IMG/VR virus record: IMGVR_UViG_3300047567_000019 | Length of the DNA stretch: 64,000 nt | From: an uncultured virus (IMG/VR IMGVR_UViG_3300047567_000019) | Taxonomy: Duplodnaviria > Heunggongvirae > Uroviricota > Caudoviricetes | Reading direction: 5' to 3' (one strand) | Shown: positions 1,881 to 47,843 of the stretch, piece by piece | Layout of the letters: each line of letters begins with the position of its first letter | Position numbering within the stretch: position 1 is the first letter of the stretch | The notes under the pieces: model-generated | What the model was told of the DNA's origin: nothing | Databases searched by the model: none | The model's input: only the letters and a program-made list of their open reading frames with translations | Program-made: the position numbers and the translations under genes

Positions 1881-1937
1881 GGATTTCACCTCAATTCAAA
1901 CAAGCGGCAGAGAATGCTCCCCGCCGCCTGTGCTGTG

Positions 1938-2108: not shown

Positions 2109-2121
2109 AGTCGCGCCTCCC

Positions 2122-2694
2122 TTAATTCAAAAAGTCTTCATCGTCTTCAGTGACGAAGTCAGACTCAGCACTTGCCTTGCCGCCCAGAGGCTCTCCATCG
2201 CGGATTTTCTGCAGGTTATTGAGGCCGCAGGCGATTCCCTTGTTGCCAGAAGAGTTGAAAGCGTAAAATGTAATGCTGGCTCTGCCGTAGACACCGGAGT
2301 ACACTTCGGAACGGGTCAGGATTGGATTCAGGTCTACATCCACGATACCGGGAGCAGAGGTGGCATTGGCGTTTACAAAGTAGGCATTCTTGTAGGCTTC
2401 ATCGTCCGGGCGTTCCGCATCGCCATCGCGAAGCGGGGTTTTCAGTACAGAGAGCGCAGGGACAATCTTGCCGTTGCCCTTGAGCTTTGCTTCACCTTCT
2501 TTATAAGCGGCTTCAATGGCAGCATGAATCTTGGCTACCGTTTTGGTATCTGACTTCGGGATAATGAGGCTCACGCTGTACTTCGGTGTGCCGCCGTTGA
2601 TGGACTTCGGTTCCCAGACGTTTGAGTAGCTCCAACGGGTGTCGGTACCTGTGATAACCTTCATGGGATTGCTGATTTTCATATTCTTACTCAT
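2122..2694 (-). CDS. DUF2815 family protein (Gp2.5-like ssDNA-binding)
   Basis: PKYSVSLIIPK, LRDGD, GIACGLNNLQK motifs; acidic C-terminus EDDEDFLN. Confidence 0.9.
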   Translation of the reverse strand: MSKNMKISNPMKVITGTDTRWSYSNVWEPKSINGGTPKYSVSLIIPKSDTKTVAKIHAAIEAAYKEGEAKLKGNGKIVPALSVLKTPLRDGDAERPDDEAYKNAYFVNANATSAPGIVDVDLNPILTRSEVYSGVYGRASITFYAFNSSGNKGIACGLNNLQKIRDGEPLGGKASAESDFVTEDDEDFLN

Positions 2695-3826
2695 AATGTT
2701 TTTCCTCCATAAAATCATTTTTTGCTGTGTTCATGGCCGGGCGTTTATCGCTTTCCGGCGCAAGAGTGGGTTTTCCCTGCGGCTTTTCGATGTAAGCCGT
2801 CAGGAGTTCATCGAAGCGGGACTTTCCGAGGAGCTTCTGCATGGCAGTGACGCCGAGCAGCTTCTTTTCATACGGATCAAATCCTGCTTCCTCGACCGTC
2901 TGGATAACAGCGGCCTCGTTACTGTATTTACGGTTGGAGCGGCCTTCGACCAGCTTCCAGCCGTTCCATTCCTTCCCGGAGAGCGCCTGCTGCAGGGCAT
3001 ATTCCTTGATGTCAGATGCCCAGCTGATCAGCTCGTCCACCTTGTAAAGAATGACTTCGATTTCGGTGTCCGTCAGGAGCGGCGGGAGTTTGAAATCGTA
3101 CTGTGCCAGCTGCAGATTGGCTTCGGCTCTGGCGCGGCACTCGTTTCTTGCCTTACAAAAGCCGCACCATTCTCCGCAGAGAAAGTTACCGTCCCCGGCA
3201 AATGCAAGCTCTGCTGTGGGTTTCAGGACTTCGTCTGCCCAGCGGTACAGATTGTCCTTACTGATATCGAAGGTGCTGACATTTTGCCGTCTTGGCTGGT
3301 AGATGGTCATGCTGACCTGATCGATGTCGTAGATGTCATCAAAGAGTTCAAGAGCACCGAGGGCGTAGCACTTCATTTGCGGATTCTCTTCAGCGGAAAC
3401 AAGAACGCCGAGGCCGTATTTGAAATCAATAACCCGGAGCGTGCCATCTGCGATGACGACGCAGTCGGCGGTACCGAAGCCCTGTTCTACCCAGCGGGAG
3501 AAGTCAACTCGCTGCTCAATCAGGACAACCGGATCAGCGCAGGTCTTCTTTGCGGCCTCGACCTGCTCCAGCACGAATTCGGCATAGCCACTGGTGCAGT
3601 CGTCCATCTCTTCGGAATACCAGGAAAGTCCATCTGTCGGATCGTCTGCCGGGAGCCCCAGCACTTTCTTAAGCTTGAACTCCGCGAGTGCATGAGCATC
3701 AGTGCCTTCCGCTGCGTAGTCGCTTCCTTTATCCTCGTAGGTTTCGCAGAGCCGTGCCGATGGCGGACAGTGAATCCATCTGTCAGCGCCGGATGCGGAA
3801 AGGATCGCGTGCTGCTTACTTGCCAT
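2687..3826 (-). CDS. DUF2800 family Cas4-like PD-(D/E)XK nuclease
   Basis: HAILSAS..RW..CPPS, GFGTAD, IDFKYG, QMKCYALG, WCGFC motifs. Confidence 0.9.
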   Translation of the reverse strand: MASKQHAILSASGADRWIHCPPSARLCETYEDKGSDYAAEGTDAHALAEFKLKKVLGLPADDPTDGLSWYSEEMDDCTSGYAEFVLEQVEAAKKTCADPVVLIEQRVDFSRWVEQGFGTADCVVIADGTLRVIDFKYGLGVLVSAEENPQMKCYALGALELFDDIYDIDQVSMTIYQPRRQNVSTFDISKDNLYRWADEVLKPTAELAFAGDGNFLCGEWCGFCKARNECRARAEANLQLAQYDFKLPPLLTDTEIEVILYKVDELISWASDIKEYALQQALSGKEWNGWKLVEGRSNRKYSNEAAVIQTVEEAGFDPYEKKLLGVTAMQKLLGKSRFDELLTAYIEKPQGKPTLAPESDKRPAMNTAKNDFMEEKHYE

Positions 3827-4154
3827 TTCCGATTGCCTCCGAGTCCTTCATAAGGGCTTCATAGTTTGCCGGGTCGATAGCGGAGAGCTTTGTCGCTCCG
3901 TATTTCTGGAGCAGGTCACGCACCTCAGCAGTGTGTCCGGCGCGGGATTTCCCGGCGAGAACGGATCTTACGTTCTCCAGCTTTAATTCCGGCTTGGGTT
4001 CTTCTTTTGTAGCAGCAGATTTAGAAGTTTGCTGCTTATCAGAATTGTCTGTACCTGAGAACTGCTGGTAAAGCCAGTCGGCTGCGTCGTTAATAACGGC
4101 AGCAGCATTGTGGAGATCTTCGATTGTTTGTTCCATGTCTGCCATTTTGCTCAT
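3816..4154 (-). CDS. Conserved phage hypothetical protein
   Basis: LENVRSVLAGKSRAG...LLQKYGATKLS; paralogue at 51836-52158. Confidence 0.8.
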   Translation of the reverse strand: MSKMADMEQTIEDLHNAAAVINDAADWLYQQFSGTDNSDKQQTSKSAATKEEPKPELKLENVRSVLAGKSRAGHTAEVRDLLQKYGATKLSAIDPANYEALMKDSEAIGNGK

Positions 4155-4299
4155 AGGTTCTTTCTCCTTTCTCGGATTGTCTTGCTGTGGCGAGGACTTT
4201 AAGGTTTCTCGCCAGCCGGGCGGATACGCGGCTGATGGAGTTCAGAAGCTGAATCTCATCGCGGACGTTCCCGCCGGTGTCTGTGTAACTTGTTTGCAT
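4090..4299 (-). CDS. Small phage hypothetical protein
   Basis: YTDTGGNV..EI.LLNSIS.VSARLARNL conserved with 52093-52311; RBS present. Confidence 0.65.
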   Translation of the reverse strand: MQTSYTDTGGNVRDEIQLLNSISRVSARLARNLKVLATARQSEKGERTYEQNGRHGTNNRRSPQCCCRY

Positions 4300-4343
4300 C
4301 GTGTTTACCTCGCTTTCTGAAGGTCTTTTCTCTGTCCTTCAAC

Positions 4344-4376
4344 TTCCACTGGAGATGAGCAGGCAATTTGAGCGGA
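4344..4376 (-). promoter_or_regulatory. Motif A copy 1: TCCGCTCAAAT-N7-TCATCTCCAGTGGAA (minus strand)
   Basis: Identical bipartite motif at four intergenic sites, each upstream of a minus-strand operon. Confidence 0.75.
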
Positions 4377-4377
4377 G

Positions 4378-4431
4378 AAAAAAATAGAAAAATTCCGACC
4401 ACCATCCTGATGAGGGACAGTGGCCGGAAAG
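4378..4431 (-). terminator. Hairpin plus T-tract after the sigma-like gene
   Basis: Imperfect inverted repeat ttccgaccacc...agtggccggaa with an adjacent A-run on +; equivalent at ~52388-52434. Confidence 0.6.
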
Positions 4432-4441
4432 GGTTGTGGTT

Positions 4442-4954
4442 TTACTTGTTCTCGATCCTATGAAGCTCTGTGCAAACGCGCTTCATCTGGTCTGCAAAGG
4501 TGCGCTGCTTACGTCCGAGAGCCTCTGCAATCTTGCGATCAGAAATTTTTGGATTGTCGAGACGCATCTGGATGATACGGTCAGCATCAGGGTCAAGTTC
4601 GCGGAAACGAGCAATGAGATGTTCCAGAAGATCATGATCCGCGATAACGGCCTCAATGGAAGGCCGATCATCAGGAATATAATCCGCGAGGGTGCCTTCA
4701 CCGTCTGGAAGTGGATCATCGAGAGATACGGTGTCAGGAGCATGGTATTCACAGAGATCACATTGGCCGTCACACTTCCATAAATAATGTTTAGGGCACA
4801 TGCATCTGCCATGATACTGCTCGCGTTTCTGGGTCGCCCAGATTTCCGGGTAAAGGGAGCGGTATTGCTCCTCTGTGATGGGTACGAGAGTGACCTTGGA
4901 AGTGTTCTCCGGGTCACGAAGTGGATAGTAACGCTGTTTTTCATTGTTTTGCAT
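4442..4954 (-). CDS. Sigma-70 region-4-like phage transcriptional activator
   Basis: Cys cluster (CMCPK..WKCDGQCDLCEY), SLD motif, C-terminal HTH SDRKIAEALGRKQRTF. Confidence 0.75.
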   Translation of the reverse strand: MQNNEKQRYYPLRDPENTSKVTLVPITEEQYRSLYPEIWATQKREQYHGRCMCPKHYLWKCDGQCDLCEYHAPDTVSLDDPLPDGEGTLADYIPDDRPSIEAVIADHDLLEHLIARFRELDPDADRIIQMRLDNPKISDRKIAEALGRKQRTFADQMKRVCTELHRIENK

Positions 4955-5383: not shown

Positions 5384-6496
5384 TTGTATTTCAAAACGCT
5401 TTTTTCAATCTTGAAGAAGCATATGGCCGACGGTGATGATGTGCCGTATTTTTTCCGTGAGATTATGGCTATGATTACAACCGTGACGGAGGAGGAATGG
5501 GGATCGAGTAAAGATCCTTCTGTCAAGACTAAGGACGAAACTCTCCGGAATTATGCAAAACGTGGTCTGTCTAAAAAACTTGCCCAGACGATTGTTTACA
5601 GGCTTACGCCAGAAATCCTTACAGAAAGAATCAACGAGAGAAATGAGACACAGCGGTCATTACTTGCAGATGATTTGAGGGGATATGATGCGACAGTAGA
5701 TGCCGATAATGTTGCGGATAAAGTCGCCGAATGGATGGTTGAGATTATTCAGACAACGGCTGGCCTTGTTCAACAGGACGCGCTTGAAAAACAGAAACAG
5801 CAACAGCTGGCTGCAGAGTTAAAAAATAAGTACGGAGAATACCTACTCACAGAATCGGCAGGTTTCTGTCCTAATTGTGGAAGAGAACTTACAGTATCAA
5901 ATAATGGGCAGACTCAGAAAGTCTATGAAGTCAGCCTTATAGATAAAAGTGCCGAAGCAACACCTGATAATCTTCTTGCCTTGTGCCCTATGTGTCATGC
6001 CACGTATTTGATAGATGATAATAAAAAGCTCTGCAAAGAGCTGCAAGACAAGAAAAGTGTTCTTACAACTCACAAGCAGAGCGTTAGATTACTGGACGAT
6101 CTTCCTCTTGAGAAAGGAATCACCGGTGTTATTACAAGGATAAAAAAGCTCAAGGAGAAGGATCTTGTTCAAGCAGCTCTTGATCCAAAAGAGCTGAATA
6201 AGAAGATTGATCCGGCACAGGATTTAGCACTGTACCTGTCGGTCAATAATTATGTGACTACATACTTCCTGAAAATTCATGAAATCATGATCAGCCTTGA
6301 TAAACGAAAGGTGATCGACTATGAAGAAGTTCAGGATCAGATGAAGGCTATCTACAGACGCTTGAAGAAAGCCAACAAGAGCAAGCTGGAAATCTTTACA
6401 GAGATATCCAATAAGATTCATAGGGTGACGCTTCAGGACGATATATTCTGTCAGATTGTGGTTTCATATTTCATTCAAAGCTGTGAGGTGTTCTAA
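5384..6496 (+). CDS. lmuA: Lamassu/ABC-three-component effector with HNH-like Zn domain and C-terminal CTD
   Basis: CPNC...NLLALCPMCH; C-terminal VVSYFIQSCEVF typical of ABC-3C CTDs; coupled to a small middle gene and an ATPase. Confidence 0.7.
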   Translation: MYFKTLFSILKKHMADGDDVPYFFREIMAMITTVTEEEWGSSKDPSVKTKDETLRNYAKRGLSKKLAQTIVYRLTPEILTERINERNETQRSLLADDLRGYDATVDADNVADKVAEWMVEIIQTTAGLVQQDALEKQKQQQLAAELKNKYGEYLLTESAGFCPNCGRELTVSNNGQTQKVYEVSLIDKSAEATPDNLLALCPMCHATYLIDDNKKLCKELQDKKSVLTTHKQSVRLLDDLPLEKGITGVITRIKKLKEKDLVQAALDPKELNKKIDPAQDLALYLSVNNYVTTYFLKIHEIMISLDKRKVIDYEEVQDQMKAIYRRLKKANKSKLEIFTEISNKIHRVTLQDDIFCQIVVSYFIQSCEVF

Positions 6497-6720
6497 TGCA
6501 ATTGCCAAATAAACTTTATTCATATGAGAACAGCACCTTGGCTTTGATTCCGAAGGTGCTGAAAGAACTACAGTACGGCTCGAAGGCAGTAAAGGATTTA
6601 TATGATGACGTTAAGCCATCACTTGATGATCCGACAGATTTCCTTTCCGCAATGGATTGCCTGTACGCGCTTCGAGCAGTTGATATTAACGAAGAGGGGG
6701 AAATATACAAATGCTTGTAG
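6496..6720 (+). CDS. lmuC: ABC-three-component middle component
   Basis: 74 aa, MQLPNKLYSY..S.L, L.AMDCLYAL; overlaps both neighbours. Confidence 0.7.
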   Translation: MQLPNKLYSYENSTLALIPKVLKELQYGSKAVKDLYDDVKPSLDDPTDFLSAMDCLYALRAVDINEEGEIYKCL

Positions 6721-8369
6721 AAATGATGTCTCCCGCATTTAAGGAAAAAGGAGAGGTTAGACCGCCGATAAGATTTAAGGACGGCCTGAATGTCGTCCTT
6801 GGAAAAGAAGACGGAACAAATTCCATCGGTAAATCATCAGCGTTACTTGCCATTGACTTTGTTTTTGGCGGGAATACGTATATTGCCAGTGATGGTGTAA
6901 AGCACATTGGTGACCATACCATCTTCTTTACGTTCAAATTTGAAGGAAAAGAATATTATTTCGCCAGAAATACTGCCTCTGCAGAGGAAGTTCAGGTTTG
7001 CACAAAAGGCTATGAACTTACGGGTGAAGTGAAAACAAGGCAGGAATTCGTAGACTGGCTTAAAGAAAAATACAATATGGATTTTCCGGGGTTGTCGTTC
7101 AGATCTACAATAAGCAGTTTCTTTAGGGTGTACGGCAAAGATAATACCAATGAAAGAAAGCCTCTCTATGGTATTCCCGGAGATGGAATGCAGAAATCCA
7201 TAGACAGGCTTGTAAAACTTTTTGACCGGTACAGGGATATTGAAGACTATACAAGCCGACTTGAAGAACAGAAGAAAAAACTTGCCGCCTACAGAGAAGC
7301 TCGTAAGTACCGCTTTGTGTCAGATCTTGTCGGCGGTAAAGATAAGTATGATGAGAATCTTGCAGAGATTCACTCCCTGCAGATTGAACTTGATACATTG
7401 ACTTCCGAGCATGTAGAGACACATTCGGAAGAAGATATAGAGAAAAATAAAATGAAGTCCGATTTGAAGGATAAAAAATTCAGATTGGAAGAAAGCATCG
7501 AGACAAAGAAACGTAGATTGAGTTTGCTGGACATGAGCCTCAGCTATGGATTATATCCTACGGAAGCTGATCTTTCTGGTCTACAGGAGTTTTTCCCGGA
7601 AGTAAACCTCAGAAAGCTTTACGAAGTAGAAGGATACCATAAGAAATTGGCGGCTATACTTGATGGACAGTTTGCTGCCGAACGTGAGAGCGTCCAGCGT
7701 GAAATTGAAAGTATTCAAGGTCAGGTGGACATAGTAAACGACCAGATCAGAGAACTTGGCATGGTCGGGAATCTGTCAAAGGAATTCCTTGACAGGCATT
7801 CTGAAATCAAAGGAAAGATAGATGCCCTGAAAACCCAGAATGAAGCGTACCTGACATTGACGGATCTTCAGGATGCGAAGAAAAAAGCAGACGATATGCT
7901 GAAGAATGCGATTGAGACGATTCTTTCAGATATTCAGCAGGCAATCAATGACAAGATGAAGGAGTATAACGATTCGTTATTCCCTGAACCTCATAAGCCG
8001 CCGCATCTGCATTTTAACGAGTACAACAGCTATCGATTCGAGACGCCCGACGATACAGGAACCGGATCAAATTACAAAGGCATGGTGATATTTGACCTTG
8101 CAGTGTTGAATCTGACAGCCCTGCCAGCTATAGCACATGACTCGCTAATTTTGAAAAACATCAGCGACGGTTCAATTGATGGCATTATGAAAATATATGC
8201 AAACAGCAAGAAACAGATTTTTATAGCTTTTGATAAACAAGATGCATATACAACGGAAACAAGAAAAATTGTATCAGACAATCAGGTTTTGAAATTATCA
8301 AATAACCATTGTGAGCTTTATGGTCAGTCATGGAATGTAGAGGAGGCTCAAAATGAAGACGAGTTATAA
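6711..8369 (+). CDS. lmuB: SMC-like ABC ATPase (DUF2326 family)
   Basis: Walker A GTNSIGKSS, long coiled coil, GTGSNYK signature region, Walker B AIAHDS. Confidence 0.8.
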   Translation: MLVEMMSPAFKEKGEVRPPIRFKDGLNVVLGKEDGTNSIGKSSALLAIDFVFGGNTYIASDGVKHIGDHTIFFTFKFEGKEYYFARNTASAEEVQVCTKGYELTGEVKTRQEFVDWLKEKYNMDFPGLSFRSTISSFFRVYGKDNTNERKPLYGIPGDGMQKSIDRLVKLFDRYRDIEDYTSRLEEQKKKLAAYREARKYRFVSDLVGGKDKYDENLAEIHSLQIELDTLTSEHVETHSEEDIEKNKMKSDLKDKKFRLEESIETKKRRLSLLDMSLSYGLYPTEADLSGLQEFFPEVNLRKLYEVEGYHKKLAAILDGQFAAERESVQREIESIQGQVDIVNDQIRELGMVGNLSKEFLDRHSEIKGKIDALKTQNEAYLTLTDLQDAKKKADDMLKNAIETILSDIQQAINDKMKEYNDSLFPEPHKPPHLHFNEYNSYRFETPDDTGTGSNYKGMVIFDLAVLNLTALPAIAHDSLILKNISDGSIDGIMKIYANSKKQIFIAFDKQDAYTTETRKIVSDNQVLKLSNNHCELYGQSWNVEEAQNEDEL

Positions 8370-8589
8370 AAAATTATGGAAGCTGTTAATAGACAGGGAT
8401 ATGACAAAGACTCAGCTGCGAGAAGCGGCTAAGATAAGTTCATCATCCCTTGCGAAACTTGGCAAGGATGAAAACGTTACTACGAGCGTTCTTGCTAAGA
8501 TTTGCGGAGTTTTGAATTGTGACGTCTCAGACATTATGGAGATGATTCCGGATGACAGTAATGAAAGCGAGGATAAAGAAAATGGTTGA
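8353..8589 (+). CDS. Cro/C1-type HTH regulator
   Basis: SYKKLWKLLIDRDM..LREAAKIS..LAKLGKDENV..L.KIC..L.C...DI. Confidence 0.9.
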   Translation: MKTSYKKLWKLLIDRDMTKTQLREAAKISSSSLAKLGKDENVTTSVLAKICGVLNCDVSDIMEMIPDDSNESEDKENG

Positions 8590-9217
8590 AAGGAATACCG
8601 CCAATATTGGCTTTGAAAAACAGATCTGGGATGCGGCCTGCGTGCTGTGGGGACATATACCGGCAGCAGAATACAGGAATGTAATAATCGGGCTTATCTT
8701 CCTGAAATATATTTCTACTGCATTTGATAAGAAATATCAGCAGCTTGTTGCAGAGGGTGACGGATTCGAGGATGATCCGGATGCATATCTGGAAGATAAC
8801 GTATTCTTCGTTCCGGAGGATGCCCGCTGGAATAAAATAGCCGCTGCCGCACATAAACCAGAAATCGGAACCGTTATCGATAATGCTATGCGTGCCATCG
8901 AGGCTGACAACAAGAAATTGAAAAATGTGCTTCCAAAGAATTATGCAAGTCCTGATCTCGATAAGAGAGTCCTCGGCGATGTCGTAGATCTCTTTACAAA
9001 CATGGACATGGGTGAAACCGAAGGCAATCGTGATGTACTTGGCAGAACCTACGAATACTGTATCGCTCAGTTTGCTGCTAAGGAAGGCAAAGGCGGTGGA
9101 GAATTCTATACACCTTCAAGCGTGCTGAACACACTTGTTGCGGTATTGAAGCCTTACTCCAACTGCCGTGTGTATGAAATTAAGACGCCGTATTTAATAC
9201 AATTTAAGGTTGCCTGA
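8582..9217 (+). pseudogene. hsdM: Type I RM methyltransferase subunit M, 3'-truncated
   Basis: IWDAACVLWG, GLIFLKYIS, LGRTYEY, GGEFYTP; homology stops at RVY-E where RVYDPxCGSGG is expected. Confidence 0.9.
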
Positions 9218-9221
9218 CCGT

Positions 9222-9276
9222 AAGGGTTTCGGTTTTGACTTAGGGGTTTCGTTTTAGGCCAGGGGTTTCGTTTTTG
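9222..9276 (+). repeat. Three direct repeats GGGTTTCG(G)TTTT at 19-20 bp spacing
   Basis: GGGTTTCG at 9224, 9244 and 9263. Confidence 0.85.
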
Positions 9277-9337
9277 AATGTATATGTGTCGGTCGAAGAT
9301 GAGACCGGCGCGTTTTGTATAAAGAAGAGGTACAGGT

Positions 9338-9526
9338 ATGCCGACAATAACAAAGAAGCAGCTGGCAGATTATGAGCAGCTGTGTAAAGATAGAAATAAC
9401 GGTCGGATTCTCACGCCGGATGGGCTTCGGTTTATCTGTGAGGCTTACGATTATGATGCCGAGAAAATAGGAAAACATTTTCTGGAGACTTTGCCGAGGA
9501 TACTTCAGAAGGAAAATGGAAGGTGA
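9338..9526 (+). CDS. Hypothetical protein, 62 aa
   Basis: GAGG RBS; stop lies next to the start of the following gene. Confidence 0.7.
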   Translation: MPTITKKQLADYEQLCKDRNNGRILTPDGLRFICEAYDYDAEKIGKHFLETLPRILQKENGR

Positions 9527-9531
9527 ACACC

Positions 9532-10110
9532 ATGAGTGAAAGCAAAAAGGATATATCCAAGAAAAAGGATACCTATGTCAAAAAGAAAAAGGACATGAAC
9601 TTTCAGAGTGTTGAATCTATGCAGTCTGTCGTTAATGTTGTGAATGAGGCTGCGGAGGCACTAAATGATAAGAATCGCACTATAAGAGAAAGTGCTATTC
9701 CAGAAGTGCTGGCCGGTGCGCTGGGTGCTGGTATTGGTGGAGTGGGTTCCTTTGCAGCGCTTTATGGGCTCGGAGTTGTTGGACTCTCAGCAGCAGGTAT
9801 TACGTCCGGTTTGGCTACGGCAGGAGCCCTTGTCGGAGGTGGTATGGTTGCTGGCGTATTTGTGCTCGCTGCTCCGGTAGCCGGTCTCGCTGCTGCAGGC
9901 GTTGGTGTTGCCTCTCATCTGAAGAATAAACAGCTTAGACAGGAAAAAGAGCGTTTATACAAAGAGGCGCTGAAAAAACACGAGGCTATTATTAAGGCTA
10001 TGAAATCAGAAGCTGATGCAGACAAGGAACGAATGGATTATCTGCAGAGTCTCAATATTCTGTTACAGCAGGCTATCAAGGATTTGCAACATGATTTAGG
10101 AGTTGCATAA
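9532..10110 (+). CDS. Glycine-zipper membrane protein with C-terminal coiled coil
   Basis: Long Gly/Ala hydrophobic stretch (LAGALGAGIGGVGS...GVGVAS). Confidence 0.8.
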   Translation: MSESKKDISKKKDTYVKKKKDMNFQSVESMQSVVNVVNEAAEALNDKNRTIRESAIPEVLAGALGAGIGGVGSFAALYGLGVVGLSAAGITSGLATAGALVGGGMVAGVFVLAAPVAGLAAAGVGVASHLKNKQLRQEKERLYKEALKKHEAIIKAMKSEADADKERMDYLQSLNILLQQAIKDLQHDLGVA

Positions 10111-10124
10111 AGTGAGGAGAAGCG

Positions 10125-10523
10125 GTGAGCAAATTCAATTTAAATAAGCTGGCACCCATGCTTGATAAGGCTGGTGACGGTTTGGTAAAGGCGGGGAAAG
10201 CAGTCGTTGATGTCGTGAAAGATCGGAACTTTCAGATAGGCGTTTTGACTGGATTGCCTGCGACAATAAGTGCATTCTTTTTAATCAGAAAATACCAAAA
10301 GCAGGCTGAGGAAAAGGAGGAGCTTTATAAAAAGGCTCTTGCAAAACACAATGCTGTTATAAAGGAACTGGATGCCAAGGCTGAGATGGACAAAGAAAGA
10401 CAAGATCGGCTTCTTGCTTATGATTCCAGATTAAAGAAAGAGATGAGCGGCTTGCAATCAGAGATTCAGGAACTGAAGAATCAGATCGCAGAGCTTGAAA
10501 AAAAGAAGGCTGACGATGAGTAA
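10125..10523 (+). CDS. Single-TM coiled-coil protein, paralogous to the upstream gene
   Basis: GAGGA RBS with GTG start; hydrophobic IGVLTGLPATISAFFLI; shared LYK.AL.KH.A.IK...DKER motif. Confidence 0.8.
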   Translation: MSKFNLNKLAPMLDKAGDGLVKAGKAVVDVVKDRNFQIGVLTGLPATISAFFLIRKYQKQAEEKEELYKKALAKHNAVIKELDAKAEMDKERQDRLLAYDSRLKKEMSGLQSEIQELKNQIAELEKKKADDE

Positions 10524-11880
10524 ATACAAGTATTCTGAAACTGAACAACAGATAAATGATGTTCTAAAATACCAAGATGAGGAGCTTAAGAAGATTAAGG
10601 CTACTATGCCTTCAACGACCGAGCTTGATAAAAGGATTCAGGAAAGTGAAGACTTGCTCCGTATGTTGGGGTATACAGAAATGCCGACGGTACCAAAGCA
10701 CGATGTAGTAAAAAAGGTAATGGTGGTACCTTCTTGGGAGCAACTATGCCTTGAAGCGGAAAACTCTGTAGGCACGGGGCATCCGCTTGAATCAATTTTT
10801 ACAGAAGCAGAGCTGAAGCGCAACAGCCAAGAAATCCGGATGCTAAATGCTGAGTATAATCAGTTGCACCATCTGGACAAATATGACATTGCAATCAGTG
10901 TTGCAGCTGGTCTGCTTGGAGCGGCTGTTGATGTTTTGTTGGTAGGCATTCCGCAGAAAACTCCAGATGGGTTAAAAGGTGGGACACTGGCCAACTATGT
11001 AAGAGACTGGTTCGATAAGAAATTTCCTGAAGAGGAAATGGAGAAGTTGGCAAACTCGAAGGTCAGCAAGGTTCCATACGACGCTCAGGATAACCGGAAC
11101 ACTACGCAGTATGTTGACGGGCTTTCTGCATATTACCATCGCCTGCTTTCTCTTGGTCACGATCCATTGCTTGGATTGATTTTTGGTGTGGCAGATATTC
11201 TTACTGGGAGAATGACCACCATTGATAAAACCGGAAAGATTGTAGTTCAGGTTATGGAGAATTATGCTGACCGCAAGGAGACAGATGTTTTTGCAGCTAT
11301 AGCCAAGCAGATCATACATTTCAAATCGGATATCACGACATCAATGGGACTACCGGCTCCTATGATGGCACTGTTTAATCTTCTGCAATTTGGGAAAATC
11401 GGTGAGTACGAACAGACCATAGCGGAAATCGTGCAGGGCATGTATTACGAGGGGTATGACTTTATACATTTCTGCACGCTTTCGATTCCGGTAATGATTG
11501 TAGAAGTAGTAACCCGGATTGGATATGCCTTCAAGCGCATTAAGGAAGGACATTCTGTAAAAGAGTCAATTCCATTTTCCCTGAACCGCGAAAAGCATCC
11601 CAAGCTCGCAACAATGCTGTTTATAGGCCACTCGGCTGCAACAGCTGTTAATGCCGGGAAGGTTTATTTTACGCAGAATCCGATGGCAATTAACTATCCG
11701 CAGTGGATTGCCTTCGCAAAATATTCATATCAACAGTTGAAATGGGTGCTGCTTGACAAGCCAAATGCCAGAGATGCATATGTGCGCGGCATTTTGTATG
11801 AAGAACTAAATGAGGTAATTGCTTCGGTCGATACAACATTTGATGATATGACTGCGGATTACATAGTTGTCTTTGAATAG
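10516..11880 (+). CDS. Uncharacterised ~454 aa protein with hydrophobic segments
   Basis: Long ORF overlapping the previous stop; YHRLLSLGHDPLLG motif. Confidence 0.8.
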   Translation: MSKYKYSETEQQINDVLKYQDEELKKIKATMPSTTELDKRIQESEDLLRMLGYTEMPTVPKHDVVKKVMVVPSWEQLCLEAENSVGTGHPLESIFTEAELKRNSQEIRMLNAEYNQLHHLDKYDIAISVAAGLLGAAVDVLLVGIPQKTPDGLKGGTLANYVRDWFDKKFPEEEMEKLANSKVSKVPYDAQDNRNTTQYVDGLSAYYHRLLSLGHDPLLGLIFGVADILTGRMTTIDKTGKIVVQVMENYADRKETDVFAAIAKQIIHFKSDITTSMGLPAPMMALFNLLQFGKIGEYEQTIAEIVQGMYYEGYDFIHFCTLSIPVMIVEVVTRIGYAFKRIKEGHSVKESIPFSLNREKHPKLATMLFIGHSAATAVNAGKVYFTQNPMAINYPQWIAFAKYSYQQLKWVLLDKPNARDAYVRGILYEELNEVIASVDTTFDDMTADYIVVFE

Positions 11881-11892
11881 CGAGTTGATTTT

Positions 11893-12078
11893 ATGGGAAT
11901 GGGATATGGCTGGGAGTGCCCAGATTGTAAATACAGTTTTGGCGCAAATGTTGGTGTTGGTTTTTTATATAATAAAAGCGAGCATCAGGTGTCCAGAGAA
12001 ACTGGTGTTCCACAGCGGACCATTCACGACCGAAAGATAAAAATCTTGGCGAAATTAAAAAGACTCATGAATGAATGA
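11893..12078 (+). CDS. Chimeric ORF: N-terminus of a Zn-finger gene fused to the C-terminal HTH of a sigma-like gene
   Basis: MGMGYGWECPDC...GVGFLY | NKSEHQVSRETGVPQRTIHDRKIKIL. Confidence 0.75.
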   Translation: MGMGYGWECPDCKYSFGANVGVGFLYNKSEHQVSRETGVPQRTIHDRKIKILAKLKRLMNE

Positions 12079-12361
12079 AGCTCTCGGCTCCCCCTCGCTG
12101 CATAAAGGCGAGGGGGAGCTATCCTTTGGGAGATGATAGTAAAATAGGGACAATTAGTATTGTTCGTATGGTAATGTAGAACATGGCGAGTGCGGCACAA
12201 CTCCGAGGAACACCTGAACATGACGTGGGGTCAAAACGTTTGCTGGTTTGATTGGGAAATGATTTTTTCAATAAGGAAAAAGTAATTATTTTTTTATGCT
12301 CACCATCTAAGATAACCCTATCGAATTAGCATTTTAAAACATGCCCTATCAGATTTTCGTC

Positions 12362-12411
12362 TTGACAACCGTTCGATTTTGAACTATAATTTTACGTGTT
12401 CAAAATCGAAC
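12362..12411 (+). promoter_or_regulatory. Consensus sigma70 promoter with two probable MarR operators
   Basis: TTGACA(12362)-17-TATAAT(12385); GTTCGATTTTGAAC at 12371-12384 and its exact reverse complement at 12398-12411. Confidence 0.9.
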
Positions 12412-12436
12412 ACTAAGGTGCGTGAGGTAATTACAT

Positions 12437-12889
12437 ATGAAAAACAATTTTTGGAACATGCTCAAAGAAGTTGAAAGCGCCTATAATTTTCACCGCAGAA
12501 AAGTTATGAACAAATATTCTCTCTCGGCAATAGAAGTAGATGTTATGTTATTCCTTGCGAACAACGGCGGCCTTAATACGGCTGCCGATATTGTATCTGT
12601 ACGAAAAATATCCAAATCTCACGTCTCACTGGCGACAGACGAGCTTTATAAAAAAGGGTACATTTGCAAAAAAGTAGACTCGGCGAATAGAAAGCGGATT
12701 TGTTTGTTTATTACTCCAAAGGCCGATGAGATAGTCCGTTATGGGCAAGAACAACAGGAAGAATTCATGAAAAAGATCGGTGACGGGTTTTCGGAAGATG
12801 AGAAAAGGCAGTTCTTCGACTCTTTTGATCGAATCATTGACAATGTCCGCCGCTTCTACAACGTGAAACCGAAAGAATCAACGGACTGA
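12437..12889 (+). CDS. MarR-family transcriptional regulator
   Basis: Winged HTH SKSHVSLATDELYKKGYI...D..NRKR..L..T.KA. Confidence 0.9.
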   Translation: MKNNFWNMLKEVESAYNFHRRKVMNKYSLSAIEVDVMLFLANNGGLNTAADIVSVRKISKSHVSLATDELYKKGYICKKVDSANRKRICLFITPKADEIVRYGQEQQEEFMKKIGDGFSEDEKRQFFDSFDRIIDNVRRFYNVKPKESTD

Positions 12890-14304
12890 TGGAAAGACAA
12901 AAGAAACGGAGGACAATTATGGAAAAGGCACATAATGAAGATAAGAGTTTCCTCGGTACAGAACCAATCAGGCCGCTTATGTTTCGCCTTTCTGTACCAG
13001 CAATTCTTGCCCAACTGATCAATGTTCTATACAACATTGTGGATCGTATCTACATCGGCCATATGCCAGAGGTTGGCGGGTTGGCGCTTACCGGTCTGGG
13101 CGTGTGCACACCGCTCATTATCATCGTGTCGGCTTTCGCCATGCTGGTTGCGATGGGAGGAGCGCCCAATGCTTCCATTGAGATGGGCAAAAAAAACGAC
13201 GAGGGAGCCGAGCACATTATGGGCAGCTGCGTTGCCTTGCAGCTTGTAATCTCCGCTGTGCTTACCGCAGCCCTGCTAATTTGGAACCGACCCTTGCTTT
13301 TAATGTTTGGGGCCAGTGAAAACACCATCGGCTATGCATCCCAGTACATGAACATCTATGCGATTGGTACCGTCTTTGTACAATTAACCTTGGGCATGAA
13401 TGCATTTATCACGGCGCAGGGTTATGCAAAAGTAAGCATGTACACGGTTTTGATCGGGGCAATCTGTAATATTATCCTTGACCCAATCATGATCTTCGGC
13501 ATGAACATGGGGGTGCGCGGAGCAGCTCTGGCGACAATCATATCTCAAGGAATCAGTTGCGTGTGGGTAATTCATTTTCTCACTTCCCCAAAAAGCAGCA
13601 TCAAGCTCCGGATGAAAAATATCAGATTTGACAATGTCCTTCTGTCCTGCGTAGCACTGGGTGCAGCTCCGTTTATAATGCAGGCAAGCGAAAGCATCAT
13701 TTCTATCTGCTTCAATTCCTCCTTGCTGAAATATGGCGGAGATATTGCCGTGGGTGCCATGACGATTCTGAGCACTGTGATGCAGTTTGCCATGCTGCCG
13801 ATGCAGGGTTTTGCGCAAGGTGCTCAGCCGATCTCCAGCTACAACTTTGGTGCTCACAATTCAGCTCGTGTCAAGCAGACCTTTCGACTGCTTTTGATCT
13901 GTTGCTGTACCTATTCCGTATTGCTGTGGGTTGCCGTGCAGATATTTCCGCAGGTTTTTGCCTCATTATTTACAAATGATACCGCAATGGTGGCGTATAC
14001 TAAAAGTGCATTACGTATCTACGCCGGTGCCATGTTTATTATGGGCGTTCAGATAGCCTGCCAGATGACCTTTATCTCCCTCGGGAATGCCAAGACTTCA
14101 ATTTTCGTAGCAGTATTCCGAAAATTTATCATGTTGGTCCCACTCATCTATCTTCTCCCCATGCTGCTACCTGATAAGACAGTAGCCGTGTATCTTGCCG
14201 AACCGATTTCAGATACTGCTGCGGTGATCTGTACTGGTATTGTGTTTGCGAAAGAATTCAGAAAAGCGATAAAAAAGTTGGATGAAGGCCCGCACGACAA
14301 TTGA
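12889..14304 (+). CDS. MATE-family efflux transporter (MepA-like)
   Basis: LYNIVDRIYIG, NIILDPI, GVRGAALAT motifs; about 12 hydrophobic segments. Confidence 0.95.
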   Translation: MERQKKRRTIMEKAHNEDKSFLGTEPIRPLMFRLSVPAILAQLINVLYNIVDRIYIGHMPEVGGLALTGLGVCTPLIIIVSAFAMLVAMGGAPNASIEMGKKNDEGAEHIMGSCVALQLVISAVLTAALLIWNRPLLLMFGASENTIGYASQYMNIYAIGTVFVQLTLGMNAFITAQGYAKVSMYTVLIGAICNIILDPIMIFGMNMGVRGAALATIISQGISCVWVIHFLTSPKSSIKLRMKNIRFDNVLLSCVALGAAPFIMQASESIISICFNSSLLKYGGDIAVGAMTILSTVMQFAMLPMQGFAQGAQPISSYNFGAHNSARVKQTFRLLLICCCTYSVLLWVAVQIFPQVFASLFTNDTAMVAYTKSALRIYAGAMFIMGVQIACQMTFISLGNAKTSIFVAVFRKFIMLVPLIYLLPMLLPDKTVAVYLAEPISDTAAVICTGIVFAKEFRKAIKKLDEGPHDN

Positions 14305-14330
14305 GATGAATCATGCCGACCTTCAATACT

Positions 14331-14390
14331 GAAAAAGGAACTGGACTTGGGCTGATCATTGCCAAGGGAGATATACAGCTATTAGATGGT
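14331..14390 (+). pseudogene. Histidine kinase HATPase remnant
   Basis: Translates as EKGTGLGLIIAKGDIQLLDG (G2 box) without the rest of the gene. Confidence 0.6.
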
Positions 14391-14719
14391 GTTTTTTCAC
14401 GCGGCGCAATTCGTTTGTTTCGATCAAATTAAAAAAAGCGCTACAAAAAAGCGTGAGTTTGGCGGGTCTATCTTCATGCCTGAATAAGCAATACCGTAAC
14501 CCTTCAAGCTCACCAGTCTGGAGGGTTTCTATGTCTGCTCAATTTACCATGAATTTCAGGCGACCGCTATTAAGTAGCGGTCGAGCGTGATGCAACGGAT
14601 CACAATCCGCTACACACCGCTTTTCTAACCGATAGCTCGTCAAAAAAACCTGTGCTTTTCAAGGAAACAGCGCGGGCAGCAGCACGAACCATCAGAGCAG
14701 ATAAAATATGAAATAATTT

Positions 14720-14771
14720 ACAGGAGCATACCTGTGGGCAACCGTGCTCACAAGTACGTTCCTGTTTTTTT
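14720..14771 (+). terminator. Long hairpin plus T-run upstream of the sigma-like gene start
   Basis: acaggagcatacctgtgggca...tgctcacaagtacgttcctgt followed by a T-run. Confidence 0.6.
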
Positions 14772-14856
14772 GCTTGCAGTTATATCATGCTGCCGAGTTC
14801 CGTCGCTTATTTTTCATTTTCAGATTTCAACAATCACGAGATGGATGACAGACACT

Positions 14857-15630
14857 ATGGCAAAATATCAGAAAATAACGGATTATCAAGCAAAATATCC
14901 CGGTGTGAGCAAAGAAATCATTGAGGTTTTAGAAAAGAGCGACCGTCAGATGGAATACCTGCAGTATGACATCAAAGCCGAGCGATGCCGAATCGATTCC
15001 ACCAGCGGAACTGTTACATATCTCCCCAGCCGAGAAGACTCATACGAACGGCTTCTGGAGGGAAACAAGCAGTTTCCCTCCGATGACGAAGATGTGGACG
15101 ATGCCGCGATTAAGGCCGTGATGATCGAAAAAATGCTAACCTGCCTCAAGCGTCTCAGCCCGGAAAAACAGAAGTTGATTACCGCTCTGTTTTTTGATCC
15201 TAAAGTTTATGAGGAAACCATCGAAGCAGCAAAAAACGGAGAGTTTGGTAATGAACTCAAGGAGTTATTAAGCGCTCATCCAGATGCCGCGATTGATCCA
15301 GAGGTCGTTATTTTGCAATGCTGCGATTGCGGTGAGTATGATTCCAGACCGATTTTGAATGCGTATGTACCGAAAGAGGATAAGCAACGACCGCCAAAAG
15401 AAAAAGGAAGAAGGTGGTCAGTAGCTTTTCCGTTTGAGGACGCTTCATATGTAACCAGTTACGACATGCAGGAATATTATGATCTGTATGCGGAGTATGA
15501 CCACAGATGTGAAAAATGTGGCGGCAAAATGACTGTTGTCCCGGAATCAAGCTATGAAAAGAAAAATGGCATGATTTGCCCTAAATGCAAAAAGCCACTT
15601 AAGTTGGTTGATCTTATTAATTGGGATTAG
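14857..15630 (+). CDS. Chimeric ORF: N-terminal 114 aa of a sigma-like protein fused to the C-terminal 143 aa of a Zn-finger protein
   Basis: ...REDSYERL...LKRLSPEKQKLITALFFD | PKVYEET...CCDC...CEKC...CPKC. Confidence 0.75.
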   Translation: MAKYQKITDYQAKYPGVSKEIIEVLEKSDRQMEYLQYDIKAERCRIDSTSGTVTYLPSREDSYERLLEGNKQFPSDDEDVDDAAIKAVMIEKMLTCLKRLSPEKQKLITALFFDPKVYEETIEAAKNGEFGNELKELLSAHPDAAIDPEVVILQCCDCGEYDSRPILNAYVPKEDKQRPPKEKGRRWSVAFPFEDASYVTSYDMQEYYDLYAEYDHRCEKCGGKMTVVPESSYEKKNGMICPKCKKPLKLVDLINWD

Positions 15631-15639
15631 TTGAAAACG

Positions 15640-15687
15640 AAAAAAGGCTCCCCAGTCACCGGAGAAATCCAGTGGTGAGGAGCTTTC
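15640..15687. terminator. Hairpin between convergent genes
   Basis: aaaaaaggctccccagtcaccgga-gaaa-tccagtggtgaggagcttt. Confidence 0.6.
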
Positions 15688-15688
15688 C

Positions 15689-17100
15689 TTATGCCTTGAT
15701 GGTCTGGCCGTTGCGGAAGGTTACGCTGATGTCGCCCTCGCCATTGACCGTGAGGTAATCCGTCAGGGCGTTAAATGCGTCAAGGGAGAACGCGGTCAGG
15801 GTTTCCGGCAGTTTCTCAAAGGCGGCAAGGAAATCCTCGACGCTGCCTTTTTGCGACTGCGTCTGGTTGATCTGTTCGTTCAAATCCTCGATGCGGGTCT
15901 TGAGCGACTCGTACCGGGTGGTCAGGTCATCGTACTTTTTTTGGTATGCCTTCTGGTCGAGAGCAACGTGGGCGTTTTCGTAGATGTTCTGCTGGACGGC
16001 ATCGGAAACAACCTGCGCTTCTTCCAGCAGTTTGTCGCGCTCGGCTTCCTGCTCTACTTGTGATTGCACTGCCAGATGACCTGCCGGTACTTATCTGTGG
16101 AGTGCCAGACCTTTGAGCCATACCAGCTTCCGCACTGTCCGCACTTGATTTTCCCGGAGAAAAGGTGGACGCCGCTGTGCCGGTTTCGGCCTTTGCCGCG
16201 CCGCTCAAGCTCACGCTGAACCATGCCTCAAAAACGTCAGGCGCAATGATGGCCTCGTGGTTTCCTTCCACATAATACTGCGGGATTTCACCATTCGTTC
16301 TTCTTCTTCTTTTTCGTGAGGAAATCCACGGTATAGCTCTTCTGCAGGAGCGCATCGCCCTTGTATTTCTCGTTTGAAGATGCTCCGGACGGTCCCGGCG
16401 TTCCACTTATCCTTGCCGCCCGGTGTCGGATGCCGTCAGCGGTGAGCTTGGGATGCGATGCCGAAGGGTGTCATGCCCTGCAGGAACATACTGTAGATGC
16501 GCTTTACACTTGGCGGCTTGCTCCGGATTCACCACAAGGTTGCCATCCGGCGCCTCGGTCGTAGCCAAGGAAATGGCCAAACGGAACGGTGACCTTTCCG
16601 TCTGCAAAACGCTTCCTCTGGCCCCATGTGCAGTTCTCGGAGATGGAGCGGGCTCTTCCTCCTGCGAGGGAGCTCATGATGGTAATCAGCAGCTCGCCCT
16701 TGGAATCCAGCGTCCAGATGTTTTCTTTTTCAAAGTAGATCTCCACGCCTTTTTCCTTGAGCTGGCGGATGGTAGTCAGGCTGTCGACCGTGTTGCGGGC
16801 AAAGCGGCTGACCGACTTGGTGACGATCAGGTCAATCTTACCATCAAGGGCATCGGTGACCATACTTTTGAAGCCCACGCGCTTTTTGGTGTTCGTGCCT
16901 GTAATGCCCTCGTCGGTATAAACACCGACGAACTCCCAATCGTCGCGGCCCTTGATATAGTTGGTGTAATAGTCGATCTGCGCCTCGTAGCTGGTGAACT
17001 GCTCGTCGCTGTCGGTGGAGACACGGGCGTACCCAGCCACCCGCCGCTTTTTCTGCTCCGTGATGGGAGAAGCAGTGAAGCGCGTCAGCGTGGCCGGGAT
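15689..17100 (-). pseudogene. Large serine recombinase 2 (frameshifts, apparent internal deletion, start missing)
   Basis: AGYARVST, YTDEGITGT, KSVSRFARN, SISEN; Zn-ribbon CGQCG; C-terminal VTFRNGQTI. Confidence 0.85.
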
Positions 17101-18602
17101 GCGGTCAGTTCCCGGAGCGTGTCCTCATGGATGCAGTTATTGCTGCAGGTGTTCGTTGTAGCGCAGACGAAAAGGTGGTACTTTTCGCCGGAGGCTTTCG
17201 TTCTGGTCTGCCTGCGGTAGTTGTTGCCGCAATCGGCACACTTGATCTTGCTGGTAAAGCAGGTCACGTCGTCACGCTTCATGGCATGGTTCCGGCGGTA
17301 GGAGGATGCCTTCTTCCGGGCTTCCGGAGTCCATGCATCCTTCTTTGCCGTGCTCACCCATGTGAGGGTTTTCTCTGTGCCGTCCGCCATGTGAAAATTG
17401 AGGATGCCCTGCTCCGGAACCGTGATCACCTCGACCTGTTCCGCAAAGGCATCCTCGTCAAATTCCTCAAGGCCAAGTGCCTCGGCGCATTTCTGCCGGA
17501 GAATGTATTCCGGGATCTCCATCGCCTTGCACTTGCCGTTTTTCGTCTTGCTGGAACCGCAGACCCAACCGACCAGCTGATCGCCGAGCTGTGAGACCTT
17601 TGCCCGGTTCTTACGGGTGTTGCGAACGTAGCTCTTGCCGCATTTCTCACACTTGATTTTGCTGGTGAAGCAGGTGATGTTCAGGCTCTTGTTGGCAAGA
17701 GCACCGAGCTCCTTCCGTCTGGCCATCTCGCTTTGCACATACTGGAAGGTCTCCATATCGATGATGGGCTCGTGGGTGTCCTCGACATAGTATTGTTTCA
17801 GCTCGCCGTGGTTCTTTTTACGCTTCTTGCTGATCGGGTCTGCGATGTATTCCTTCTGCAGGAGCATGTTACCGGTGTAGGTGATGTTGGAAAGCACCAC
17901 CTTGATATTGGAATCCACCCAGCGGCAGCCTTCGCGAGTCGTGATGCCCTCGGCGGCAAATTCCCGCTCTGTCTCAAGGCGGGACTTCCCATCAAGGAAG
18001 TTCTGGTAGATGCGCTTTACGATGGCGGCTTCCTCCGGAACGATGACCAGCTGGTCGCCTTCCCAGCGGTATCCGAATATCCTGAAGTGCCCGTTCGGGA
18101 TTCCACGCTCCATGCGCTTGCGAACTCCCCATTTTACATTGTTGCTGATGCTTTCTGATTCTGATTGCGCGAAGGAGGCCAGAAGTGTCAGCATGACTTC
18201 GCCGTCGCCGGAGAGGCTGTCGATGTTTTCCTTCTCAAACCGGACGCTGATACCCAGCTCCTTTAGGTGCCGGACGGTCTCTAAGAGGTCTACGGTGTTG
18301 CGGGCAAAACGGGAGATGCTCTTACAGAGAACAATGTCGATCTTGCCAGCGTCGCAGTCGGCAATCAGCCGCTTGAACTCATCACGCTTCTTGGCGATGG
18401 TGCCTGTGATGGCTTCATCAGCATAGACGCCGACATATTCCCACTCCGGGTTCTTCTGAATAAGCTCCGAGTAGTAGCTCACCTGAGAGGAGAGGGAATG
18501 GTGGAGCCGCTCGGTTTCCATTGACACGCGGGCGTAGGCTGCGACCTTTTTTCTGGTCGGCAGCGCTGGTATCTGCGGCTCTATCTTCGTGATTTTCGCC
18601 AT
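17085..18602 (-). CDS. Large serine recombinase 1 (C-terminus apparently truncated)
   Basis: AAYARVS, KSISRFARN, AQSESESIS; two Zn-ribbon repeats TCFTSKIKC..CG. Confidence 0.92.
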   Translation of the reverse strand: MAKITKIEPQIPALPTRKKVAAYARVSMETERLHHSLSSQVSYYSELIQKNPEWEYVGVYADEAITGTIAKKRDEFKRLIADCDAGKIDIVLCKSISRFARNTVDLLETVRHLKELGISVRFEKENIDSLSGDGEVMLTLLASFAQSESESISNNVKWGVRKRMERGIPNGHFRIFGYRWEGDQLVIVPEEAAIVKRIYQNFLDGKSRLETEREFAAEGITTREGCRWVDSNIKVVLSNITYTGNMLLQKEYIADPISKKRKKNHGELKQYYVEDTHEPIIDMETFQYVQSEMARRKELGALANKSLNITCFTSKIKCEKCGKSYVRNTRKNRAKVSQLGDQLVGWVCGSSKTKNGKCKAMEIPEYILRQKCAEALGLEEFDEDAFAEQVEVITVPEQGILNFHMADGTEKTLTWVSTAKKDAWTPEARKKASSYRRNHAMKRDDVTCFTSKIKCADCGNNYRRQTRTKASGEKYHLFVCATTNTCSNNCIHEDTLRELTASRPR

Positions 18603-18624
18603 TTGAATCACTCCTTTCCGGTAC

Positions 18625-47755: not shown

Positions 47756-47804
47756 ACCTTGAGTCCTCCTTTCCGGGCAGACTTAAAAGGCGTCCACCTC
47801 TAAT

Positions 47805-47837: not shown

Positions 47838-47843
47838 CGATAT

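Follow-up and report, generated by a model that had tools for sequence, protein, structure and literature searches.

An inserted marR-MATE unit joins the halves of two genes

The window analysed here is a 64,000-nucleotide stretch of DNA from an uncultured virus of the Caudoviricetes (IMG/VR record IMGVR_UViG_3300047567_000019), in which a gene for a CxxC protein is interrupted by an inserted unit (11971-15198; features lie on the plus strand unless stated otherwise) that carries a marR-family regulator gene and a MATE efflux transporter gene and is opened within its own sigma-70 region 4 gene (sigma-r4, hereafter sigma). Re-reading of the window letters placed the left junction (GGT TTT TTA TAT|AAT AAA AGC) at 11970/11971 and the right junction (CTG TTT TTT GAT|CCT AAA GTT) at 15198/15199, with the reading frame kept through both; junction sequences, coordinates and in-frame fusions all read as an earlier note on this sequence had claimed. 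At the left, an open reading frame (ORF) of 61 aa (11893-12078) is made of 26 aa of the CxxC protein, from the first 26 codons of the target gene (11893-11970), and 35 aa of sigma, from the last 35 codons of its gene, followed by the stop (11971-12078). At the right, an ORF of 257 aa (14857-15630), which extends to 298 aa from a GTG start at 14734, joins 114 aa of sigma, whose first 114 codons (14857-15198) end at the opening site that we call U1 (..TTTTTTG|AT), to 143 aa from the last 143 codons of the CxxC gene (15199-15630). The exchange point is an AT dinucleotide common to both parents, with its left copy at 11969-11970 (no strand assigned) and reading T|AT when the cut is placed before A. 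Alignment of the left (attL) and right (attR) junctions with the empty site bore out this 2-bp exchange point, as previously proposed, and the contig comparison described below likewise gave two shared bases.

The earlier note had also proposed that removal of the insert restores a 169-aa CxxC protein and that its circularisation restores a 149-aa sigma-r4 protein, the ORFs as they stand having no full-length homologue, and homologue searches agreed. With the 257-aa chimera as query, 166 proteins were retrieved at E<=0.001; among the best 120 of these 166, coverage of the chimera never exceeded 58%, and 95 of the 120 were by our own count exactly 149 aa long. In contrast, the rebuilt proteins do have full-length homologues: P0006 and P0095 run ..LITALFFDNKSEHQVSRETGVPQRTIHDRK.. 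through the sigma join, over which P0095 is identical, and P0001 (169 aa), P0004 (171 aa) and P0017 (159 aa) carry ..GFLYPKVY.. through the CxxC join. In intact P0006, Pfam assigned residues 96-145 to Sigma70_r4 (26.1 bits against a cut-off of 24.1); the match spans the join, so that the stretch forming the domain is the stretch split by the insertion, and the two sigma fragments of the window gave no Pfam hit. By this score the 149-aa protein belongs to the Sigma70_r4 family, and a sigma function is predicted for it.

Between the two sigma fragments, a promoter-like site (12362-12390; TTGACA, 17 nt, TATAAT; 12 of 12 matches) precedes the marR-family gene (12437-12889; Pfam MarR_2 and MarR), which is followed by the MATE efflux transporter gene (12889-14304; Pfam MatE, E 8e-45), whose protein is 100% identical in six loci of metagenome-assembled genomes (MAGs). 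Upstream of the first sigma fragment lies a non-coding leader (14445-14856), delimited by blastn matches to loci L020-L034 that begin at 14445; it contains a second opening site, U2 (14466/67), and accompanies sigma even in loci that lack marR-MATE. In agreement with the claim that the insert carries marR-MATE and no recombinase, Pfam found MarR and MatE only, and no recombinase domain, among the insert's ORFs, and P0006 hit sigma r4 only.

Empty and filled sites in related viral genomes and metagenomes

The nearest record, provirus G001, gave two abutting matches, to window 9175-11976 at 99.9% and to 15190-16055 at 99.8%, and encodes an uninterrupted 169-aa CxxC ORF (L008:3493-4002) that runs ..GVGFLYPKVYEET.. 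through the empty site. A second viral record, L157, also has the empty site and a whole CxxC gene. The filled form was found in L068, a 158-kb viral contig that carries the same insert (99.5% over 6883 bp) next to another chromosomal flank than the window; when viral contigs were searched for exact matches to the junction's sigma side, L068's contig was the sole match, and megablast of the insert against the GenBank phage and PLSDB plasmid collections gave none. The phage left arm is 99.9% identical in G001, L157 and L068. The filled arm was found at two chromosomal sites and the empty arm at a different two, so that movement of the phage, or of its arm, continued after the capture.

Metagenomes contained at least half of the words of the stretch in 19 rows from 11 studies, and contigs of four public runs (X1, X4, X10 and X13) were compared with window 11000-16200. 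As the earlier note had anticipated, both the empty site and a joint of the circle type were present. The empty-site joint, 11968 to 15197 (skipping 3228), was read in two independent metagenome studies, at depth 74.3 in X10 and 8.87 in X13, and the head-to-tail sigma joint, 15196 back to 11969 (3228), had depth 251.9 in X10 and 48.5 in X13. The unit was correspondingly deeper than the phage flank, at 333 versus 74 in X10 (4.5x) and 80 versus 8.9 in X13 (9x). The contigs that encode P0003 and P0005 measure 3282 and 3309 bp, which at most hints at circles of unit length. In X1 and X4, from which this DNA may derive, contigs spanned both junctions of the inserted form at even depth, and neither the empty-site nor the circle joint was seen in them, an absence that says little because contigs can miss rare forms. 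Window 11971-15198 is confirmed as a genuine insert. It measures 3228 bp here, by its junctions and by comparison with G001, and the true length of the unit is probably 3227 bp, because the base at 12128 is missing in all four runs compared and tandem copies (below) are spaced 3227 bp apart.

The unit occurs in bracketed, tandem and circularly permuted forms

We surveyed 56 metagenome loci, found by the N-terminal part of sigma, and the six MAG loci with the 100%-identical pump, and three forms of the unit were apparent. In the first, the unit lies between two diverged sigma copies; in L073 these repeats are ~0.8 kb long, 78-89% identical and spaced 3232-3235 bp apart. In the second, units are in tandem, with a spacing of 3227 bp in L013. 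In the third, exact one-unit inserts are circularly permuted, being opened at U2 (14466/67) in L011, at U3 (12216/17) in L012 and L074, and at U5 (12051/52) in L076, and all of these leave sigma whole. The empty site, the joined sigma and the permuted inserts together uphold the proposal that the unit entered as a circle opened within its own sigma gene, and show that the window copy is an exact circular permutation of the unit within the CxxC gene.

The cargo itself varies. In L014, a variant unit in tandem has the same pump and a marR that is only ~38% identical, and the sigma-bracketed slot seems to exchange cargo. MAGs labelled Lachnospiraceae, Oscillibacter, Eubacterium and Clostridia (L071-L076) share a pump of 100% identity, whose next relatives are at most 69% identical; either recent transfer between lineages or the binning of mobile DNA would account for this. 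The unit copy of L076, on a 1.6-Mb MAG contig, has been struck twice (5617-7265 and 9885-14533); one of the intruders is a DDE insertion sequence with a 7-bp duplication, and the other, a block of 4.65 kb, encodes a tyrosine integrase and two transposases, of the IS91-family Y2 type and of ISL3. As to sigma, 13 of the 56 loci have a more distant homologue that is followed, ~1.5 kb downstream, by two or three genes for large serine recombinases (LSRs); its nearest alleles (L017, L073, L013) are followed by an HTH_26 gene and then by an operon of TerB, BrxC-D-type ATPase and DEAD helicase genes. A defence system, and not an integrative and conjugative element (ICE), may be under the control of the sigma-like protein.

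Opening sites are reused and breakpoints follow a common rule

Junctions were read from printed alignments and grouped into classes. Left out of the count were L014 (a diverged variant unit at a contig start), L049 (a possibly chimeric contig), the sigma allele switches in L013 (right end), L058 and L073, which look homologous, and the chimeric proteins P0002, P0047, P0074 and P0095. The L049 join lies 43 nt beyond the usual sigma site and leads into very AT-rich DNA, in which the long ORFs look like housekeeping genes from some unrelated bacterium with a small genome; this contig is probably a chimera. A breakpoint between G or T and A (G/T|A) fitted 13 of the 16 classes. In all four two-sided inserts (window/L068, L011, L012/L074 and L076) both parents are cut in this way, and nine of the twelve one-sided classes agree (L059, L061, L019, L055 left, L072, L063/64/75, L013 left, L066 and L015/18/67). 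Of random exchanges between the unit and the rest of the window, 4% would fit G/T|A in both partners, or 20% given at least 2 shared bp, and at least 2 shared bp occurred in 16% of random exchanges, compared with all four of the two-sided inserts.

The same positions were used repeatedly. U1 was joined to three partners, in the window, in L059 (a different small gene, likewise joined in frame) and in L025; U3 (12216-12217) was used with three targets, in L012/L074, L019 and L061; U2 with two, in L011 and L066; and U5 (12051-12052, G|AAATTAA..) in L076. On the target side, the same methylase dinucleotide was struck in L011 and, in opposite orientation, in L061, and the homologous position of a ~70%-related methylase in L076. 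The bases shared at the joints are AT in the window and GA/TC or TGA in L011, L012 and L076, with no base lost or gained, and beyond them the CxxC target and sigma share scattered bases only, as do the targets of L011, L012 and L076. Since sites are reused with different partners, the breakpoints are not the product of random breakage. The search for the same unit in other genomes, suggested by the earlier note, returned other breakpoints, and its alternative of a unique breakpoint left by a one-off event was refuted by the reuse of the sigma site in L059 and L025.

The carrier prophage is joined to type I methylase genes

Upstream of the insert, the N-terminal part of hsdM, encoding a type I methylase (8552-9175; Pfam HsdM_N, and N6_Mtase profile positions 2-52 of 311), is truncated at the left end of the carrier prophage, and its frame continues into phage DNA as ..CRVY|EIKTPYLIQFKVA* (window 8552-9217). 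The block shared with G001 begins at 9176 with GAAATTAAGACGCC.., and the prophage end (9176-9210), which starts with a shared GA, was found at seven different flanks (the window and L152-L157); two scans for it gave the same six records both times. Four of the seven flanks are hsdM alleles of different sequence, cut at N6_Mtase profile positions 50-52 of 311. Of the others, a fifth is methylase-like, one is a small gene after a relaxase and one is too short to name. The methylase-like ORF is the one interrupted in L157, which we take to be such from its FTP..W motif; Pfam gave nothing on it. In an intact relative (L012), the motif I residues come next at the cut point (..TVY-DMTMGT..). Because the same end is joined to seven flanks, four of them cut hsdM alleles, 9176 is the left junction of the prophage, with the LSR pair at 15689-18611 as its integrases; and since the cut falls at one profile position in all four alleles, these alignments indicate that the phage family disrupts type I methylase genes on integration.

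The first LSR gene (15689-17040, minus strand; Pfam Resolvase and Zn_ribbon_recom on separate ORFs, phrog_95 'integrase') has broken frames here and is intact in G001 (529 aa), and the second (17085-18611, minus strand; Pfam, phrog_95 'integrase') encodes 508 aa here and 599 aa in G001. In relatives, only 1.8-2.1 kb separate the left end from the recombinase gene. Frames are also broken at 34653-35408 (portal), 48131-49846 (polA) and 55066-57124 (AAA_13), besides the recombinase and the extra base at 12128. The window may carry assembly indel errors, and its apparent pseudogenes are for that reason not trustworthy. An HTH_17 (excisionase-type) ORF at 54766-55047, near the phage right side, is a candidate directionality factor for the serine integrases.

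The other phage end was sought in several ways. The window, G001 and L068 contained no C-terminal part of hsdM, the window also lacked an inverted copy of the left end, and phage right arms found no match in the flanks of L152-L157; in G002 and G003, which were also examined, the phage ends were not located. We had considered that the CxxC gene held the phage attachment site attP and sigma the bacterial site attB, and rejected this on the ground that G001 and L157 are integrated elsewhere (in hsdM and in a methylase-like gene) with the CxxC gene whole. Capture of the cassette between two prophages at neighbouring sites was dropped as unneeded given the true attL.

A serine integrase acting in trans is the favoured route of entry

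On balance, we think it probable that LSRs of this phage family integrated, in trans and at pseudo-sites, a circle resembling unconventional circularizable structures (UCS); the enzyme step we infer. Recombination between sigma repeats, or inside an array, would release a one-unit circle, as in UCS. A single conservative reciprocal exchange would then join the circle to its target, breaking sigma at ..TTTTTTG|AT.. and the CxxC gene at ..TTTTTAT|ATCC.., in both cases between G/T and A. The enzyme for this exchange would most likely be one of the LSRs of this phage family, supplied in trans and working on pseudo-sites, on the grounds that these LSRs appear to place their own phage in methylase motif I DNA, with GA shared, and that the unit's other insertions match that class of site. 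The prophage now carries a self-promoted marR-MATE operon, at the cost of the CxxC gene and of this sigma in working form.

Several comparisons of sites and genomes are consistent with this route. The targets in L011, L061 and L076 encode motif I of an Eco57I-family methylase, FLDP(G/A)CK(S/T)G, at TTT CTT|GAT CC or TTT TTG|GAT CC. The window target, TTT TTA T|AT CC (G F L Y P), looks like this site, and the sigma site reads TTT TTT G|AT AA. The pattern TTTYTDKATCC, partly derived from these sites and hence not independent of them, occurs once in 20 kb of G001, at the target, and twice in the window, once at the hybrid right junction. Compared with the phage left-end sequence, U5 was the best of 742 G/T-A sites of the unit and U1 was within the top 41; the likeness of unit sites to attP rests on one half-site, because attR and the left half of attP were not found. 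Homologues of the LSRs (E<=1e-150) occur in three of five unit-bearing MAGs versus 5 of 80 other genomes of one family. A serine recombinase, which the earlier note had named among its candidates, is therefore still the best one, given the neighbouring LSR pair and the phage's own hsdM junction with GA; that the pair acted on the unit is again something we infer.

A number of observations weigh against integration by these LSRs. For such enzymes, each partner normally has to offer a long specific site, and the 2-bp cores of the two must be identical. Here, a single register for all sites pairs GA with TA in the window, and the AT core matches only if shifted by one base. U3 and U2 match the phage left-end half-site poorly, two targets, T3 (the GmrSD gene) and T4, are not methylase motif I, and three of the 16 classes (L025 right, L055 right and L071 left), or 4 of 17 with the odd contig L049, do not fit G/T|A. 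The LSR frames in the window are broken, although the breaks may be assembly indel errors. The search for attR and the left half of attP was negative in the window, G001, L068, the flanks of L152-L157, G002 and G003, and the flanks examined at L011, L012 and L076 contain no LSR gene. The co-occurrence control is rough, since it covers one family only and the MAGs bear several family labels. Finally, contigs do not distinguish a circle from a tandem array, and the head-to-tail joint was seen in two of the four runs.

One rival explanation invokes an enzyme of the HUH nick-and-join type, that is, a rolling-circle Rep, a relaxase or an IS91-type transposase, which would nick one strand before A at T-rich ..G|AT, make one circuit of the circle and pass one unit length into a nicked target, replication completing the second strand. 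The common rule is indeed a cut position, G/T|A, and not a matched 2-bp core, with five events pairing G|A with T|A; tandem arrays exist; pC194-type Rep proteins nick at sites that T-rich ..G|AT resembles; the L076 copy contains an IS91-family Y2 transposase that went in after ..TTTG; and a MobA/VirD2-type relaxase flanks the phage in L068's contig. We nevertheless judge this route quite unlikely, because the window ORFs and L011-L064 flanks that were scanned gave no HUH, Rep or relaxase domain, the unit lacks a fixed end resembling an origin, and LSRs explain directly the three insertions in methylase motif I and the phage's own like junction. Illegitimate recombination at 2-3 bp of chance microhomology, followed by selection for inserts that leave marR-MATE intact and land in dispensable phage or defence genes, also appears unlikely to us. 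It would account for the many opening positions, mostly in non-coding parts of the unit or in sigma and none in marR-MATE, for the 2-3 bp that alone are common at the junctions, and for targets that are non-essential cargo genes; but it predicts neither the reuse of unit positions and of a target dinucleotide with different partners, nor G/T|A in 13 of 16 junction classes when 4% is expected for two-sided events, nor at least 2 shared bp in 4 of 4 two-sided inserts as against 16% of random exchanges.

The two remaining explanations had been raised by the earlier note and fared less well. That excision acts as a programmed reversible switch, rebuilding and activating sigma (and the CxxC gene) only on the circle, we consider very improbable. 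Excision would rebuild both genes exactly, both junctions being in frame, and empty-site and circle-type joints exist in nature; an equal phase at both genes, however, arises by chance 1 time in 3, the empty and joined forms were found in runs other than those with the inserted form, and the unit has neither a directionality factor nor a recombinase. Moreover, the unit was opened elsewhere at 12051/52, 12216/17 and 14466/67 with sigma whole, and the breaking of sigma is therefore incidental. A Tn916-type tyrosine integrase with a 6-bp coupling sequence can hardly have made the junctions. Both parents do show TTTTT-N6-TAAA, but each N6 is a hybrid of both parents with a single split point (ATAT+AA at attL, TGAT+CC at attR) instead of being inherited whole, the shared stretch is 2 bp, and no Phage_integrase domain was found among the window ORFs scanned, the HTH_17 ORF lying far off. 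Entry of the circle through an LSR of the carrier phage family thus stays our preferred reading.

Defence genes surround the insert and are targets elsewhere

The cargo of the phage left arm (9338-11880, by PADLOC) consists of a small ORF (9338-9526), two BnzA-like pieces (9523-10110 and 10125-10523) and a BnzB-like gene (10495-11880). The BnzB match is strong (E 3.4e-68), and that of BnzA is weak (E 5e-05), the gene being apparently split in two ORFs. The CxxC gene starts 13 bases after the BnzB-like gene and is the last gene of this Bunzi-like defence operon, so that in the window, too, the cassette lies within a defence operon. Its targets elsewhere include a GmrSD gene and restriction methylases. 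Its entry into these other defence genes was probably mediated by borrowed phage serine integrases.

The carrier phage itself sits in the hsdM of a Lamassu/ABC-3C-like defence island, after the replication module of another phage (1-4954). Immediately left of the cut hsdM is a Lamassu/ABC-3C-like trio (5384-8589; CTD11/LmuA-like, DUF2326/LmuB-like and HTH_26), and a similar pair follows the replication module in G002. The window holds two related replication modules in the same orientation (1-4954 and 46999-52864; polA, an Enc34-type single-stranded DNA-binding protein and DUF2800), 77-85% identical to that of G001. The arrangement looks like one prophage inserted into a defence island at the end of another.

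Relation to known mobile cassettes

As described in PMC7843796 (after Palmieri et al. 2013), UCS lack a recombinase, have long flanking direct repeats and loop out as a circle with one repeat. The unit likewise has no recombinase gene, and its donor form is cargo bracketed by long direct repeats, the two sigma copies. Such repeats are present in L073 (~0.8 kb, 78-89%) and, as tandem units, in L013, whereas the window copy is flanked by 2 shared bases. The return of UCS is there put down to homology with a repeat already in place, whereas the unit, in which no such re-insertion was observed, sits at non-homologous sites, with many openings and 2-3 bp shared.

On the recombinase side, PMC4701971 describes streptococcal ICEs with several LSRs that integrate into hsdM with repeats of 2-8 bp, and PMC4430133 states that TndX of Tn5397 requires a central GA and that its target DNA encodes a conserved domain. 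The tandem LSR pair, the hsdM disruption, the very short core, its GA and a target encoding a conserved protein motif are all features that our case has in common with them. It differs from them in that the carrier is a prophage and that a passenger circle without fixed ends apparently uses the same class of target.

Three further systems offer partial parallels. Staphylococcal cassette chromosome (SCC)-type cassettes that lack ccr genes are moved in trans by the ccrA/ccrB serine recombinase pair, with a target in a methyltransferase gene. They resemble the unit in being recombinase-less and dependent on an LSR pair, but have fixed flanking att repeats, of which the unit has none. Integron gene cassettes are recombinase-less circles, promoter-poor or self-contained, whose integrase is supplied in trans; unlike the unit, which has no fixed site, they use a defined attC site and a tyrosine integrase. 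Phage serine integrases of the phiC31 type join circles to look-alike sites that share part of the true att; this is known from engineered systems, whereas the unit is a natural passenger cassette. In the literature searched, neither this cassette nor the spread of passenger circles by phage serine integrases was found described.

Significance

Temperate phages are usually held to acquire extra genes through chance recombination events that are rare. For this one cassette, sequences are at hand of its donor form, of the site before and after filling, and of several independent re-insertions, and its breakpoints are rule-bound, so that a testable mechanism, phage serine integrases acting on pseudo-sites, can be offered. 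The cassette, a pump and its regulator, spreads among anaerobes of digesters, landfill and wastewater, in prophages and into defence genes, and the off-target choice of natural serine integrases is also relevant to those who use these enzymes in genome engineering. More tentatively, it is conceivable that temperate phages of anaerobic Clostridia carry pairs of serine integrases that target DNA encoding methyltransferase motif I, disabling restriction or BREX-type defences on integration, including those of a resident rival prophage, and that these enzymes, at look-alike sites, also stitch free recombinase-less circles into phage cargo arms and defence genes. If integrases do stitch circles in this way, phages would have a general, enzyme-driven route for picking up host genes, one that would already have carried a single efflux cassette across MAGs labelled as several bacterial families.

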